DNA from: an uncultured Saprospirales bacterium
GTDB taxonomy: Bacteria; Bacteroidota; Bacteroidia; Chitinophagales; JADIYW01
Assembly: GCA_938008535.1 (NCBI GenBank)
Contig: CALLKF010000116.1
Coordinates: 11,376 to 75,375 of the forward strand
Direction: 5' to 3'
DNA: 64,000 bases
Part shown: piece by piece, positions 37,954 through 43,344 of the stretch
How the letters are laid out: every line of letters begins with the position of its first letter
Numbering within the stretch: the stretch's first letter is position 1
Made by a program: the position numbers and the translations under genes
The notes under the pieces: generated by a model
Seen by the model: only the letters and a program-made list of their open reading frames with translations
Told to the model about the DNA's origin: nothing
Databases searched by the model: none

Positions 37954-38673
37954 TTATGCATTTCCATTCATCCAAGTAAACACTTTGTTTCCATCGGTAT
38001 TTATAGAAAATGAATCTTTAAAAACGGCAGAAAAGTTTTTTTCAAACTGTGCGTTTTCAATGTTGCTTTTGTGCGAATCATCTATTTTTGAGAACAACAA
38101 AATACCTTGTTCGTTTACTAAATTCTTTAAGCTGCTTAGAAATTGTTGCTGCATAAATTGCATTGGTGTTTCGTCTTCAATAAACACATCAAACAACACC
38201 AAATCGTATTTTTTATGTTGATGGGTTTGCACAAAATGTTCTGCATCATCGCATACATAATCTACTTTATTTTTTAAGTTCGATTGTAAATACTTTTTAG
38301 CCAAATCAATAATAATTGTATCGGCATCAACAGCAGTTATTTGGTTGATGCTTGTATGATTTTCCAGCAGATCTACCACGCTGCCTAAACCGAAACCTAA
38401 TACCAAAACCGATGCTATTTTTTTGTTTTGAATATCAATTGCTTTAAACGCTACCTGAAACGATGTGTAGTTTTTTCCGAACGAATAGATAGCGTTTTTG
38501 GTAGCCAGTTTATATTGACCACCAGACAAAGAAACCTCCACTTCGCCAGAGAAATTGCTTTGTTTTTTCTCTATAGAAATATCGAACAGGTAGCTTAAAA
38601 TATGTTTAATGGTGGATGGCATCGGCAACGCGAAAATAAGTAAAATTAGCTGAATTAGTTTTGTAGTGTACAT
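37954..38673 (-). CDS. Class I SAM-dependent methyltransferase / spermidine-synthase-like protein
   Basis: N-terminal hydrophobic segment and LVLGFGLGSVV (motif I-like) followed by an acidic D..D pattern; 239 aa. Confidence 0.6.
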   Translation of the reverse strand: MYTTKLIQLILLIFALPMPSTIKHILSYLFDISIEKKQSNFSGEVEVSLSGGQYKLATKNAIYSFGKNYTSFQVAFKAIDIQNKKIASVLVLGFGLGSVVDLLENHTSINQITAVDADTIIIDLAKKYLQSNLKNKVDYVCDDAEHFVQTHQHKKYDLVLFDVFIEDETPMQFMQQQFLSSLKNLVNEQGILLFSKIDDSHKSNIENAQFEKNFSAVFKDSFSINTDGNKVFTWMNGNA

Positions 38674-38742
38674 ACTGAGCTACTATTAAAAAACGAATGC
38701 AATGCACATTGACAGACTTGCATTTTTGCATTTTTGCTTCAT

Positions 38743-38965
38743 CCGCATGATAGGAAGTTGGTTCCGCATGATAGAAAGCTGAAGTGCGATGATAGATAGT
38801 TAATTCCGCATGATAAAAAGTTGTAGCCCGATGATAGATAGTTGACTCCGTTTAATAGAAAGTTGAATCCCGATGATAGAAAGTTAGCTTCGGATAATAG
38901 AAAGTTTAATCGCGGTGATAGAAAGTTTAATCCGCTTGATAGTAATTTTCGTTCGGAAAAATAGT
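38743..38965 (+). repeat. Degenerate head-to-tail tandem array, ~21-bp period, 10-11 units (consensus CCGnnTGATAGAAAGTTnAnT)
   Basis: Units start at 38743, 38764, 38787, 38806, 38827, 38848, 38869, 38891, 38911 and 38932, with a decayed unit at 38954. Each has a (T/A)GATAG(A/G/T)AAGTT-like core. The region is noncoding, with stops in all frames. Confidence 0.85.
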
Positions 38966-39034
38966 AAATGGTTGGTTTACAGTGGGTTTGTAAATTTATC
39001 TGATCAAATTGCGTAAGAAATTGGAATAATTTCT

Positions 39035-40600
39035 TTAAATAAGATTCAACTTTACTTTAAGTTGATCTTTTACAATATCAAATTCTTTAGGTATGTTTTC
39101 AACTGCCACATCAGTAGCCCATTTATATGCATCTTCAATTTTATTATCATCTCTAAAATGCTGATTAGGAAAATATGTCTTAATAAATTTTTCTAATGTT
39201 GGTACAATTTCCAATCCTACTTTATTATCTATAGAGTTTTTTAGTTGACCGTGAGCATCTGGGTCTGAGCCACTATCTTTATCCCAAATTGCAAAATAGT
39301 CATCAATTCCCATCAATCTCATTACACCTATAAAATACATTACGCCTCCTTTACCACCGCATTCAATAATTGAGATACCATTTTTATTTAAGGAAATTTT
39401 CCATTTATCTTCTATTAATGTTGTCCACAGGATTTTATCTGAATCTCCTTCAACTAGAATGACATATCTAGCAAAAAATATTTCATTTCGGTATGTATTA
39501 AAGTGAGCATATATCTTAAATTCTTTTGATTTAAAATAATCTTCGTTTACAAAAGTCTTATTCTTTTTTCTCAAGTAAGTTCCATTATCTTTATCTTTTG
39601 TTATAAGTTCAATCTCATATGCTCTTTGCGGATTAAGAAAATTAGGATTATGTGTTGTATAAAATATTTGTGTATTATCTGAAAGTTTTTGAAAATTGTC
39701 ATACAGTTCTCTTTGAGCTTGTGGATATAAGAAAAGCTCAGGTTCTTCAATTGCAAAAATTGCCTTTCCTTGATTTAATTCAGCATATGATTGAAAAATC
39801 GATAAAAGAATAAGATTCTGCATTCCTGAACCTACTTCTTCAGCATCAAATATTTTTTCATTTAAATCTTCTGAAACTGTAATTTGCAATGTTTTATAAA
39901 ACCAATTTAAATTATAAATATCAAGTTGAGGCTTAAAATTATTTGCGATACCTGCACTATTTTGTTTACAATATCCTACAAAAACATCATAGAATTTTTT
40001 GAAAGAAACGGCAGTTGTATTACCTGAGAAATCATATTCTAAAAATTCTTTTGCTGGTTTCATAATTTCAGTAAACTCGTGCTGTAAATTTTCTTCTCCA
40101 CTATAAAAATCAATATAATTATCCTGTACTAACCTCATCATTTTTCCTAATAAAGTCCAATTACTAACTCTCATCTCATCTTTTAAATCTCTTAAAGAAG
40201 GTATATAAACGAAGTGGCAGGATTTTTTAAATTCTTCATTTAAAAATCCTGGTTTTTCATTACCACTTGGAAAATTCTCCCAAAGACGCATTTCACAATT
40301 AAGTGGATTTAATTCCATTTTTAGTGATACAAATTTTATAGCTCTTTGACCATTATATGATTTCCAATCTATTGGATCATTTAATTCGACTAAAATCTTT
40401 ATTGGTTTTGATGTGTCATTAAATAATTCTTTAGCAACTTTTGCTTTAGTTGTCCAACCTTCACCTAGTACTAAATCAATTGCTTTTAACACATTTGATT
40501 TACCACTACTATTTGCGCCAACAATTGCACATAATTTTAAAGGTTCTAATTCTAACCGCTTTATAGAACGGAAATTCTCGATTGAAATTTTCTTAATCAT
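39035..40600 (-). CDS. OLD-family ATP-dependent endonuclease (ABC-type ATPase + C-terminal Toprim)
   Basis: N-terminus IENFRSIKRLELE, Walker A GANSSGKSN, signature-like GSGMQN, Walker B FAIEEPELFLYP and H-loop TTHNP. Toprim motifs are ILVEGDSDKILW, ECGGKGG and FAIWDKDSGSD. Confidence 0.85.
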   Translation of the reverse strand: MIKKISIENFRSIKRLELEPLKLCAIVGANSSGKSNVLKAIDLVLGEGWTTKAKVAKELFNDTSKPIKILVELNDPIDWKSYNGQRAIKFVSLKMELNPLNCEMRLWENFPSGNEKPGFLNEEFKKSCHFVYIPSLRDLKDEMRVSNWTLLGKMMRLVQDNYIDFYSGEENLQHEFTEIMKPAKEFLEYDFSGNTTAVSFKKFYDVFVGYCKQNSAGIANNFKPQLDIYNLNWFYKTLQITVSEDLNEKIFDAEEVGSGMQNLILLSIFQSYAELNQGKAIFAIEEPELFLYPQAQRELYDNFQKLSDNTQIFYTTHNPNFLNPQRAYEIELITKDKDNGTYLRKKNKTFVNEDYFKSKEFKIYAHFNTYRNEIFFARYVILVEGDSDKILWTTLIEDKWKISLNKNGISIIECGGKGGVMYFIGVMRLMGIDDYFAIWDKDSGSDPDAHGQLKNSIDNKVGLEIVPTLEKFIKTYFPNQHFRDDNKIEDAYKWATDVAVENIPKEFDIVKDQLKVKLNLI

Positions 40601-40729
40601 TTCAAAAAATATTAAACATTAACACTTTATTTTTACTATCAAATATAGCTTTCTTTAATTAGACTGCGAAATATAGAATTAACAAATTAAACTGCTTGCT
40701 GTATTTGCTGATAATTACACACCTCTTAA

Positions 40730-40747
40730 TCTCCTCTCAAGAGGAGA
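40730..40747. promoter_or_regulatory. Perfect palindrome in the OLD/HTH divergent intergenic region (candidate operator or small hairpin)
   Basis: tctcctc-tcaa-gaggaga forms a 7-bp perfect stem and is the most GC-rich structured element in the 281-bp spacer. Confidence 0.3.
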
Positions 40748-40881
40748 AACCGGACAGTGGTATTCTGGTTGGCAGTAGTGCTTAATAAATTTAGTATGAC
40801 AGTTAGACTATTTTCTTTTAGCAATGACATCTTTTATTGCATGTTTTTTATTAATATTACTTAATAAAAAAACCAATTACT

Positions 40882-41235
40882 ATGATTACATTAGAAATTA
40901 GCCCAGTGCTAAACGAACGTGAAGTGAAAAAACATGGTTCGTTCCTTTTTCAAAATGGCTTCTCGTGGAATTTTGCGAGCCGTCTGTTGACAAAAAAAGT
41001 TAAAAGTATTTCGTTTAAGCATCTTGAAACTTTGTGTACGCTGCTGCATTGCACGCCTAATGACATTTTGTTGTGGAAACCTGACGAAGGACAACAGCCA
41101 GATAAATCGCAGCCGCTGCACCAACTCACTCCACATTACAGAACTCTCGTGTCGCACGGCTTAAAGAATCTGCCTATTGAAACACTGAGAGAGATTCGCA
41201 AAATGATTGAAGAGGAAGTGAAGAAGAATCTGTAA
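40882..41235 (+). CDS. XRE/Cro-type helix-turn-helix protein
   Basis: 117 aa; ISFKHLETLCTLLHCTPNDILLW matches the C-terminal half of the HTH_XRE domain. It is divergent from the OLD gene. Confidence 0.65.
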   Translation: MITLEISPVLNEREVKKHGSFLFQNGFSWNFASRLLTKKVKSISFKHLETLCTLLHCTPNDILLWKPDEGQQPDKSQPLHQLTPHYRTLVSHGLKNLPIETLREIRKMIEEEVKKNL

Positions 41236-41276
41236 GGATTTTTTTTTATTTGTGGTATTGAGTCAAGACTAAAAAA

Positions 41277-41298
41277 TCCATCGTGTAGGCGATGGATT
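41277..41298. terminator. Bidirectional intrinsic terminator between HTH gene and toxin gene
   Basis: atccatcg-tgtagg-cgatggat forms an 8-bp stem, flanked by A6 upstream and T7+ downstream. Confidence 0.75.
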
Positions 41299-41327
41299 TT
41301 TTTTACAGTATAATTTGATTGAAGAAA

Positions 41328-41642
41328 TTACTTTGGTGTTCGTTGTTGTATATGTGTTATCATGTCTTGCTTTTCACCTAATACTGCGATGATGCTAATG
41401 TGTTTTTTGTTTTCGTTTTTGATGTAAAATACATAGTATGGAAAACGTTCTATTTCTACTATTCTTACTTCTTTTATAAATTGTCTGTGTTCTACAATTG
41501 TTACTGGTAAATCGTCTATTACTTTAAATGCTTCTTGCAAAAATTCGGTTCCTAATCTTTCTTGTTTTTCTTCGTACCAATCATAGATTTTTCTTAACTC
41601 TAATTTCGCTTTGGTACGAATAATTACTTTATAGTTGCTCAT
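41328..41642 (-). CDS. RelE/ParE-family type II toxin
   Basis: 104 aa with a ParE-like pattern (AKLELRKIYDWY...ERFPYYVFYI...ISIIAVLG). It has a 4-nt overlap with the upstream small gene. Confidence 0.7.
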   Translation of the reverse strand: MSNYKVIIRTKAKLELRKIYDWYEEKQERLGTEFLQEAFKVIDDLPVTIVEHRQFIKEVRIVEIERFPYYVFYIKNENKKHISIIAVLGEKQDMITHIQQRTPK

Positions 41643-41863
41643 AGTTTGCCTTCCAATCTTAGTTCCTTTTTAAATGCTTCTGATGAAATGCCTTCTTCTG
41701 AATCTTGTCCATATTCTTCTAATCTTTCTTCTATTATACTATAATGTAATGCGCTAAATTTCTGGTCTGCTTCTAATAATTTCTTTACTGCTTTTATTAT
41801 CCATTCTTCTTCGCAGTTTTTAATTCCTTCAATTATTAGTTGCTTTTCTGCTGATATTTGCAT
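41639..41863 (-). CDS. Putative antitoxin (addiction-module component)
   Basis: 74-aa acidic protein, translationally coupled (ATGA) to the ParE-like gene. Confidence 0.55.
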   Translation of the reverse strand: MQISAEKQLIIEGIKNCEEEWIIKAVKKLLEADQKFSALHYSIIEERLEEYGQDSEEGISSEAFKKELRLEGKL

Positions 41864-41994
41864 GGCTTTATTTTTATCAAATTTAATGTTTTTATTCTTT
41901 TATGGTTGTTAATTTTTTATGTGTTGCGTGGTTGGTGCAATATGTTTGGTAAGTGGTTTGTTGGTTGGAAAGCAAGAACGGTAAAGGATTAATT

Positions 41995-42537
41995 TTAAGG
42001 ACTAGCACATTCTATATCTTTTACACCTGTTATTTTATTAAGAAACGTAACCGGATCAAATTTTACCTCAATTATAACAGTATCATTATAGACAACAAGT
42101 TCACTGCCATAATCTGAAACACTAATAGTTGAATAAGAAGAATCTGCATAATCTATTTTTATGGCTAATCTTGTATCGCCCCATCCTCGTTTGTGAACAC
42201 TAACTATTTCACTATTATATACCATATTATACAAAACACTATCTATTACTTTTTCATTAGATGTAGAAAAAATAATTTGATTTTTTTTGATAACATCTTT
42301 AGCAGACAATGCAAAATCAACTTTACAGTGCCCATAATTAGGTCGTTGTCCAAAACACCAGCAGTATAATGTTAGTTTCTTTCGCTTTACGTTTTTCTTA
42401 GAATCTTTATAATTTACTATTCGTAAAGAATCTTCATTTACTTTAACTACTTCTGTATGATTCTCAACTTTCTTATTACAATTATTACAGGAAATAAATA
42501 GCAGAATTACAAAACTGATTATCAAAAATCTTATCAT
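41995..42537 (-). CDS. Hypothetical lipoprotein
   Basis: MIRFLIISFVILLFISC provides a lipobox; no recognised domain. Confidence 0.5.
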   Translation of the reverse strand: MIRFLIISFVILLFISCNNCNKKVENHTEVVKVNEDSLRIVNYKDSKKNVKRKKLTLYCWCFGQRPNYGHCKVDFALSAKDVIKKNQIIFSTSNEKVIDSVLYNMVYNSEIVSVHKRGWGDTRLAIKIDYADSSYSTISVSDYGSELVVYNDTVIIEVKFDPVTFLNKITGVKDIECASP

Positions 42538-42540
42538 CGT

Positions 42541-43344
42541 TTACATTTTCTTGTAATACTTCAACGCTTCTTGTAAGTATTTATTTTGAATATCGCTGAT
42601 GCGTGTTTCATCGCTTGGGTGTGTGCTTAAGAATTGTGGTGGGTTTTGTCCTTGGCTTTGCGCTGCCATGCGTTTCCAGAAGTTAATAGCCTCGGTTGGG
42701 TCGTAGCCAGCCATTGCCATAAAAATTAAACCCATGCGGTCGGCTTCGCTTTCCTGTTTTCTGCCAAAAGGCAATATGGCGCCTAATTGCGTGCCGATGC
42801 CAACTGCATTCATAAAGATGCTTTTAGTTTGTTCTTTTTGATTGGCTAAGGCAACATCTAAGGCAGTCATACCTAATTCCTGCATCATCTGCGCGCTCAT
42901 CCGTTCGTTCCCGTGGCTGGCAATAGCATGCGATATTTCATGGCCCATCACCACTGCCAAACCTGCTTCAGTTTGCGTAATTGGCAGCAAGCCTGTGTAA
43001 ACAACTACCTTTCCGCCAGGCATGCACCATGCATTTGCAATTGGATCATTTACCACATTAAATTCCCAAGCGTATGATTTCATTTTGTCTGCCAAACCAA
43101 TCTGTGTCATGTATGCATTTACGGCTGCGGCAATGCGTGTGCCTACTTTTTTTACTAAGTCAACATTTGCGCCAGTGGAAACAACTTTTGTTTTGTTTTC
43201 TGTTAAAAAACTTTGGTACTCGGTTAACGCCATCGAGTTCATTTGCTCTTCAGGCAATAAGGTTAATTGTTTTCGTCCTGTTATTGGATTTTGGCTGCAT
43301 GCTGCAATCAAAATGGTTAGTATTATTAAGTTCCATTTCTTCAT
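42541..43344 (-). CDS. M48-family zinc metallopeptidase lipoprotein
   Basis: Lipobox LTILIAACS, HEISHAIASH (HExxH), and a downstream E (ESEADRMG). Confidence 0.85.
   Translation of the reverse strand: MKKWNLIILTILIAACSQNPITGRKQLTLLPEEQMNSMALTEYQSFLTENKTKVVSTGANVDLVKKVGTRIAAAVNAYMTQIGLADKMKSYAWEFNVVNDPIANAWCMPGGKVVVYTGLLPITQTEAGLAVVMGHEISHAIASHGNERMSAQMMQELGMTALDVALANQKEQTKSIFMNAVGIGTQLGAILPFGRKQESEADRMGLIFMAMAGYDPTEAINFWKRMAAQSQGQNPPQFLSTHPSDETRISDIQNKYLQEALKYYKKM

Follow-up and report, generated by a model that had tools for sequence, protein, structure and literature searches.

Stand-alone antiphage defense has been demonstrated for three Class 1 OLD nucleases, P2 Old, the Vibrio cholerae OLD protein (Vc OLD), and Escherichia coli YbjD (OldB), all of them encoded in DNA that is variable or mobile and all acting through abortive infection (PMC12392090, PMC13261556, PMC12445682). 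Class 1 is defined as a single OLD gene without a helicase, retron, or split-Toprim partner (PMC10568477, PMC13261556) and is the least understood of the OLD classes, with phage phenotypes for these three members only; for P2 Old, cleavage of tRNA was shown recently. Here, we describe an OLD gene (positions 39035 to 40600, minus strand) from an uncultured Saprospirales bacterium. It lies in a 64,000-nucleotide stretch of contig CALLKF010000116.1 (positions 11,376 to 75,375 of the forward strand; assembly GCA_938008535.1), which we call the window and whose coordinates are used throughout. We consider it probable (roughly 0.8) that this gene is an intact Class 1, mobile one-gene defense cassette in a variable hot spot of an activated-sludge member of the Chitinophagales and that its neighbors are independent modules.

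Identity and class of the OLD protein

The 521-amino-acid (aa) product matched the Pfam families AAA_15 (5.8e-36), AAA_21 (9.9e-22), and OLD-like_TOPRIM (2.7e-17). Among the PADLOC models, Old was the best (3.7e-51), ahead of AriA and many GajA models, with the match limited to residues 129 to 446. An earlier note on this DNA had suggested both the profile searches and PADLOC, and all of them returned OLD-family matches. In a sequence search of the PDB, the only strong match was the Thermus scotoductus OLD protein (TsOLD; 6P74; E value, 2.7e-45; residues 1 to 443 against 1 to 434). Other matches (Class 2 Toprim domains, PtuA, and SMC heads) reached only 1e-5 to 1e-4, with one Class 2 Toprim domain at 3.8e-4. 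An AlphaFold2 model built on 89 homologues had a predicted local distance difference test score (pLDDT) of 87.2 and a predicted template modeling score (pTM) of 0.84. A Foldseek search with this model also placed 6p74 first (E value, 2.7e-29; TM score, 0.60), followed by GajA chains (∼1e-17) and retron Eco8.

We read the HMMER alignment to TsOLD against the residues mutated by Schiltz et al. (PMC7049728). The Walker A lysine K34 (K34 in TsOLD), the Walker B glutamate E285 (E276), and the H-loop histidine H317 (H310) are present, giving the lysine, acidic residue, and histidine expected of an OLD-family ATPase. On the Toprim side, the metal-A ligands of TsOLD (E377, D431, and D433) correspond to E384, D440, and D442, and its metal-B ligand D381 corresponds to D388, so that the metal-A set and the first metal-B aspartate are both represented. 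Six of these seven residues are invariant in the 89-homologue alignment, and D388 is nearly so. The sequence alignment to 6P74 ends at residue 443, and the last 80 residues could not be aligned.

The class assignment rests on the profile, PDB, and fold rankings. Length (521 aa) and affinity (6P74 at the top by both sequence and fold) point to Class 1, the absence of the Toprim helical insert and the C-terminal helical domain of Class 2 being judged from length and ranking. The gene also stands alone: downstream of it lie a 21-bp tandem array and then a core methyltransferase-like gene, and there is no helicase in the islet. As the earlier note had reported, open reading frame (ORF) and Pfam scans of the islet and its syntenic core neighbors found no GajB-type or other helicase, no reverse transcriptase, no separate DUF4435 protein, and no recombinase, and an Rfam scan of positions 38000 to 43000, which bears on an msr-msd, gave no match. 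The note had taken the missing canonical partner as something unusual. Class 1, however, is by definition a lone gene (PMC10568477, PMC13261556), so the absence of a partner is not an anomaly. Based on the Pfam, PADLOC, and 6P74 sequence and fold matches and on the retained catalytic residues, we conclude that the protein is a predicted intact Class 1 (single-gene) OLD ATPase/Toprim nuclease, in line with the class that the earlier note had proposed.

In 44 of the 89 clade members, the C terminus consists of an acidic linker followed by [ILVMTP]P[FL], resembling the C-terminal tip of single-stranded DNA-binding protein (SSB). Neither the window protein nor the 12 sequences closest to it in the alignment have such a tail.

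Distribution and genomic contexts of OLD homologues

A large protein collection contained 762 homologues with 50 to 87% identity, scattered over many phyla. The nearest (81 to 87%) come mostly from metagenome contigs, and two of them belong to metagenome-assembled genomes (MAGs) of Saprospiraceae and Chitinophagaceae. A large group at 50 to 60% identity takes in Patescibacteria, Saganbacteria, WOR-1, Ignavibacteria, Pontibacter, Planctomycetia, Gammaproteobacteria, Omnitrophota, Fibrobacterota, and one archaeal MAG (Bathyarchaeia).

At 35 genomic loci, the OLD gene is usually packed co-directionally among large genes. Clustering of the neighbors and Pfam tallies identified type I HsdM/HsdS/HsdR, N6_N4 and Eco57I/MmeI-type methylases, McrBC, integrases, and recombinases. 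The three closest loci adjoin a tyrosine integrase, an MmeI enzyme together with a TIR protein, and a GIY-YIG protein, respectively. DNA similarity to these three (79%) is confined to positions 39062 to 40603, and since it stops at the ends of the coding sequence, only the OLD coding sequence is common to them. No single partner recurs across the 35 loci, and none of them has a relative of the genes that surround OLD in the window, which encode a small helix-turn-helix (HTH) protein of the HTH_26 family, a ParE toxin, an antitoxin, and a lipoprotein-like product. We therefore rejected co-transfer of the ParE, antitoxin, or lipoprotein-like gene with OLD (0/35 loci). Because no partner recurs and only the coding sequence is shared, OLD behaves as a one-gene cassette; by its distribution and contexts, it is a predicted horizontally mobile defense cassette.

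This clade is unusual in retaining 50 to 60% identity across very distant phyla. Its members usually lie inside restriction-modification (R-M) operons, whereas the window gene is alone.

Accessory status of the insertion site

We refer to the window genome as G000, to its nearest relative as G003, and to other related genomes by further G numbers; C numbers are contigs and L numbers are compared loci. We searched 60 related genomes, 32 of which belong to the same genus, in all six frames and recovered no OLD orthologue, only distant ATPase paralogues. The left flank is an S-adenosylmethionine (SAM)-methyltransferase/spermidine-synthase-like gene (37954 to 38673, minus strand). When 24 other genomes of the genus were searched for it, 23 had a single-copy orthologue in conserved synteny. 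An M48 peptidase gene (42541 to 43344, minus strand; Pfam, 1.3e-36) forms the right flank. The order rsmG-VWA-PAP2-methyltransferase, insertion site, M48-1643-aa protein is conserved. The earlier note had called the surrounding genes housekeeping-looking, and both flanking genes are core. The adjacent methyltransferase-like gene, which gave a weak PADLOC mad2 match, was rejected as a DNA-modification partner because it is a single-copy core gene with genus-wide conserved synteny.

Empty sites exist: the methyltransferase-like and M48 genes are only 23 to 90 bp apart in G004, G023, and G010, and in G005 and G006 the same gap is occupied by other short inserts. Relative to the empty sites, the window insert spans 38674 to 42540 (3.87 kb). 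The genes that the earlier note had listed for its islet are present, but the insert is longer than that islet and also takes in a 180-aa lipoprotein-like ORF. The interval is not universally conserved, and on this comparison the OLD gene is an accessory gene, as the note had supposed, in a predicted variable intergenic hot spot between two core genes rather than part of the core.

The closest relative further resolves the insert. At this site, G003 carries a ParE/antitoxin pair (94% nucleotide identity to that of the window) adjoining a different lipoprotein ORF, with no array, and it has no OLD or HTH gene anywhere in its genome. Similarity between the window and G003 ends at 38640 and resumes at 41263. 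Since G003 has the toxin-antitoxin (TA) pair without array, OLD, and HTH gene, these last three would form the G000-specific block, and the TA pair would be older cargo of the hot spot.

The arrangement itself is reproducible. Contigs from four independent wastewater or sludge metagenomes (2017 to 2024, different studies) span the array-OLD and OLD-HTH junctions without any difference, so the arrangement is real and not an assembly artifact. All four ORFs of the earlier note, the OLD motifs that it quoted (GANSSGKS, FAIEEPE, TTHNP, ILVEGDSDK, ECGGKGG, and WDKDSGSD), the 281-bp divergent spacer, and the TA pair coupled by 4 nucleotides (nt) were found at the coordinates given there, and the 21-bp array next to OLD is likewise real.

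Direct or inverted repeats at the insertion or inversion junctions amounted to AT-rich noise only. A G/T-rich word, TGGTTGGTG, occurs at 38960 to 38990, at 41925 to 41975, and at the edges of the G005 insert at the same site. It was rejected as an insertion scar because it is ∼11-fold overrepresented genome-wide (128 occurrences against ∼11 expected). Within the methyltransferase-like gene, similarity to G003 stops 33 bp inside the annotated N terminus (38641 to 38673), and the product annotated here has 239 aa, whereas orthologues have ∼220 aa. Translation may therefore begin further downstream, in which case the array would be more than the annotated 68 bp from the start. In the methyltransferase-M48 gap of G005, L065 6523 to 6706 and 7513 to 7773 hold, respectively, a different 21-bp array, made up of 8.8 copies of the unit AAATCGATACGGAGATCGAAT, and a 77-bp repeat in 3.4 copies with 94% matches; neither an HTH gene nor OLD is present there.

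The HTH_26 gene and the 21-bp array

The array (38742 to 38942, plus strand; detected by TRF) consists of 9.6 copies of the unit TCCGCATGATAGAAAGTTnnn. On the other side of OLD, across the divergent spacer (40601 to 40881, delimited by sequence and alignment), lies the gene for a predicted small DNA-binding protein of the Cro/C1 type (117 aa; 40882 to 41235, plus strand; Pfam HTH_26, 3.8e-10). Three paralogues occur in G000, each 40 to 130 bp downstream of a 21-bp array, and within the genus the family is restricted to G000 (4 copies), G005 (3 copies), and G011 (2 copies). At 10 of 13 homologous HTH loci, reaching down to 30% identity, the start codon is directly preceded by a 21-bp array, whose unit sequence differs between loci. 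The usual distance is 30 to 130 bp. In the window, 1.9 kb separate the HTH gene from the array, which lies beyond OLD and whose units face the other way with respect to the HTH gene than they do at the nearest homologues.

We built a weight matrix from the ten units of the window array. Arrays next to the two closest HTH homologues scored 18 to 23 and unrelated DNA 6 to 8, in support of a cognate relationship between protein and site. The HTH_26 gene and the array make up a separate unit, which most likely pairs a DNA-binding protein with its own sites in a phased row. An apparent relic of the array upstream of the G003 methyltransferase-like gene, seen by eye, was rejected, as the matrix scored no higher than 6.2 there.

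Two features suggest how OLD came to separate the two parts. The word GGTTGGTTTACA, found by a genome word search at 38970 to 38981 (plus strand) on the array-distal side, occurs three times in the genome, twice beside HTH arrays (that of the window and that of C114). It is on the distal side of the C114 array, 42 bp beyond it, and on the OLD side of the window array, where it looks like a remnant of the leader of the HTH-array unit. In addition, the last ∼48 bp before the window HTH start are conserved with a G005 homologue whose array begins immediately upstream. Most parsimoniously, the order leader-array-promoter-HTH would be regained, and OLD placed immediately before it, by a single inversion of ∼2.1 kb that takes in OLD, the leader, and the array.

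G000 contains about 87 arrays of 21-bp period (median, 225 bp), nearly all intergenic and with many different unit sequences. Because the window array is one of these and is the upstream partner of the HTH family, it does not belong to the nuclease. Of the 721 TRF rows in G000, 215 have period 21 (e.g., C114:17379-17603, C163:28760-29011, C97:15507-15681, and C85:20619-21059). Several small paralogous families have their 5′ ends facing arrays, namely, eight members of ∼235 aa, three members of ∼210 aa, pairs of 126-aa HTH-like proteins, and HTH_26 itself.

Independent modules or a joint system

The earlier note had raised a joint function of array, HTH gene, and nuclease and had suggested that the divergent OLD/HTH pair may be an unusual regulatory arrangement. 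In such a two-gene module, the HTH protein would repress the divergent OLD promoter, and the array would act as a sink or roadblock tuning HTH levels or read-through into the methyltransferase-like gene. The two genes do share the 281-bp spacer, which has an inverted repeat with 7-bp arms (CTCCTCT-CA-AGAGGAG, 40731 to 40746). Array, OLD, and HTH gene are also exactly the block that G003 does not have, and their arrangement is identical in the four metagenomes. However, the pairing is local. An HTH_26 relative is present at 0 of the 35 OLD homologue loci, with the same count for ParE, and OLD is present at 0 of 12 other HTH loci (2.5 to 3.4 kb each). Among the genomes of these other HTH loci, the six-frame search gave OLD homologues for G005 and G037 only, on contigs without an HTH locus, and the DNA similarity between OLD loci ends at the coding sequence. 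An HTH operator in the spacer was rejected because the array-unit matrix found no significant site there: its best score, 7.6, ranked only 27th when all hits in the window were considered, with a chance of ∼8% of a match that good. A sigma-70 promoter scan, which is ill-suited to Bacteroidota, found no more sites in the islet than in shuffled sequence. Based on these comparisons, we consider a regulated OLD-HTH module quite unlikely. The islet is instead a predicted mosaic of independent modules and not a new multigene system, with a conserved OLD-HTH pairing unsupported.

A related question is whether OLD is present because of the HTH_26-array unit. Such units might mark, or help to create, recombinase-free insertion hot spots that gather small defense cassettes. 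Five of the nine in-genus units lie within ∼3 kb of defense or TA genes, with OLD and ParE in the window, ParDE on C114, a C5 methylase and HATPase_c_3 on C163, an NgoPII R-M system on G005 C1, and an HpaII R-M system with Vsr on G005 C2. Two of these sites, C163:24558-29486 and G005:C2:104000-115500 (L103), are orthologous, with HTH proteins 79% identical and the same glycosyltransferase neighbor, yet their R-M cargo differs. On the other hand, nine units are a small sample with no genus background rate for defense genes, four of them have no obvious defense neighbor, and intergenic regions that tolerate insertions may simply accumulate arrays and defense genes alike. Neither a recombinase nor a mechanism for insertion at the units was identified. 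That OLD is here because of the unit is, in our judgment, very unlikely. The broader idea, that small defense cassettes are recruited to or tolerated at HTH_26-array units, as resident landmarks, without a recombinase, the window having OLD caught inside one, we also regard as unlikely. If true, the HTH_26-array unit would be a new kind of chromosomal defense hot spot in the Chitinophagales, and an HTH protein bound in phase along ∼10 sites could also silence incoming cargo. The cargo of the orthologous G005 C2 site also includes DUF559.

The protein might instead serve the cell itself, in DNA repair or the cell cycle, as RecF-type ATPases or the archaeal Cran1 do (PMC12796447). For such a housekeeping role, one could cite weak N-terminal similarity to RecF, SMC, and RecN and the unusual conservation of the clade at 50 to 60% identity across phyla. 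It is scarcely tenable given that the gene occurs in no other species of the genus searched, that its distribution across phyla is patchy and includes R-M operons and sites beside integrases and a TIR protein, and that in the HMM scans RecF-type matches cover the P-loop region only and fall far below family cutoffs.

The ParE/antitoxin pair and other features of the insert

Beyond the HTH gene, the insert encodes a ParE/RelE-fold toxin (104 aa; 41328 to 41642, minus strand; Pfam ParE_toxin, 1.1e-5, 26.4 bits against a cutoff of 23). It is preceded by a putative antitoxin gene (74 aa; 41639 to 41863, minus strand) that overlaps the toxin start by 4 nt and has only a subthreshold match to Unstab_antitox (E value, 0.016). 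A ParE-fold toxin preceded by a small overlapping gene, with the pair at the same site in G003, is the organization of a type II ParE/RelE TA system. Given that G003 has no OLD, the pair is a predicted module separate from OLD that the two genomes share. Over window positions 41263 to 41917, aligned to G003:C14 (L109) 228 to 878, the TA module has 94% DNA identity and the flanking core genes 87%; the G003 antitoxin ORF is N-terminally shorter (54 aa). One metagenome contig (X3; depth, 9.6; related strain) joins 41302 to 41610, so that 307 bp comprising nearly the whole ParE ORF are gone and the antitoxin is kept.

Between the convergent HTH and ParE genes, the sequence at 41271 to 41304 forms a hairpin (A-run, 8-bp stem, and T-run), probably a bidirectional terminator and the right limit of the G000-specific block. 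The same hairpin, AAAAAATCCATCG...CGATGGATTTTTT, also occurs at L065 7795 to 7830, and its half-words occur 14 times in the genome against ∼1 expected. It looks like a shared terminator or an element resembling repetitive extragenic palindromes (REP). Metagenome contigs often break at this hairpin.

The remaining ORF of the insert (180 aa; 41995 to 42537, minus strand) is lipoprotein-like and had no match in family scans. No relative was found at this site in other species, which bear different small lipoprotein ORFs.

Proposed mechanism

In the reading that we favor, OLD as a one-gene cassette, the gene would have landed between the core methyltransferase-like and M48 peptidase genes. It would now sit inside the HTH_26-array unit, and the hot spot would carry the ParE/antitoxin pair and the lipoprotein-like ORF as further, separate cargo. 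If the protein works as P2 Old, Vc OLD, and YbjD do, it would probably be a dimer that stays latent in uninfected cells until a cue of phage infection switches it on. The active enzyme would then cut nucleic acid via two-metal Toprim chemistry, either nicking or degrading DNA or cleaving tRNA. This would stop phage replication at the cost of the infected cell, i.e., by abortive infection.

Several points weigh against this interpretation. Trigger, substrate, and the antiphage activity itself are extrapolated from relatives with ∼21% identity. The D-loop histidine of TsOLD is replaced by Tyr292, which is invariant in the clade, and the Q-loop histidine by Ser135, so that the ATPase behavior may differ, both positions being variable among Class 1 OLD proteins (PMC7049728). 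In the C-terminal region, T468/E470 is a candidate second metal-B pair ([S/T/D]xE) and the invariant K487 a candidate catalytic basic residue, as suggested by conservation within the clade alone. Since array, OLD, and HTH gene are the block that separates G000 from G003, a local co-option of the HTH protein as a regulator is conceivable, if at low odds. Finally, the archaeal OLD protein Cran1 has a nondefense role (PMC12796447).

In practical terms, the outcome is mostly negative: the islet is a mosaic, and a Class 1 gene would be expected to have no partner. Of more interest, though peripheral, is the recurrent HTH-array unit, which often borders variable defense cargo.

Comparison with known systems

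TsOLD, the structural archetype of Class 1, is the closest described protein. It resembles the window protein in length (528 against 521 aa), in domain order (an ABC ATPase with an inserted dimerization region, followed by Toprim), and in the Walker A lysine, Walker B glutamate, H-loop histidine, metal-A E/D/D, and metal-B aspartate. It differs in that the two share only ∼21% identity, tyrosine and serine replace the D-loop and Q-loop histidines, and the C-terminal 80 residues are unaligned. No phage phenotype is known for TsOLD itself.

P2 Old, Vc OLD, and YbjD are likewise single genes with no obligate partner (PMC12392090, PMC13261556, PMC12445682) but are distant in sequence. P2 Old responds to inhibition of RecBCD, Vc OLD and YbjD have other triggers, and the substrates vary (tRNA and nicked DNA). 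Because they differ among themselves, their triggers and substrates cannot be transferred to the window protein.

GajA (Class 2), retron OLD (Class 3), and PARIS AriA/AriB (Class 4) share the ATPase and Toprim chemistry and appear as secondary profile and fold matches, with scores 12 to 18 orders of magnitude weaker than those of the Class 1 references. Unlike in Gabija, no GajB helicase ORF is adjacent in the window islet or its syntenic flanks. Unlike in retron OLD, there is no reverse transcriptase domain (Pfam) and no Rfam match within positions 38000 to 43000. Unlike in PARIS, ATPase and Toprim are in one 521-aa polypeptide, and the AriA models match the ATPase part only.

For the neighboring unit, the nearest parallels are plasmid iterons and parC/ParR, in which arrays are bound by small DNA-binding proteins. 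The HTH_26 family similarly has ∼10 phased 21-bp direct repeats just upstream, with a unit that covaries with the protein. In contrast, the HTH_26 units, for which binding is putative, are chromosomal and multicopy, with no Rep or Par ATPase, and most of the ∼87 arrays are without this HTH gene.

Stand-alone defense genes are also found within R-M operons, such as PrrC in EcoprrI and the rlo genes in Campylobacter hsd loci. Homologues in the OLD clade commonly occupy comparable positions, co-directional between hsdM/hsdS and hsdR or behind type II/IIG methylases. The window OLD differs in that no R-M gene adjoins it, the neighboring methyltransferase-like gene being a core, spermidine-synthase-like gene. 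This makes the lone window gene a clean case for asking whether a member of the clade defends by itself.

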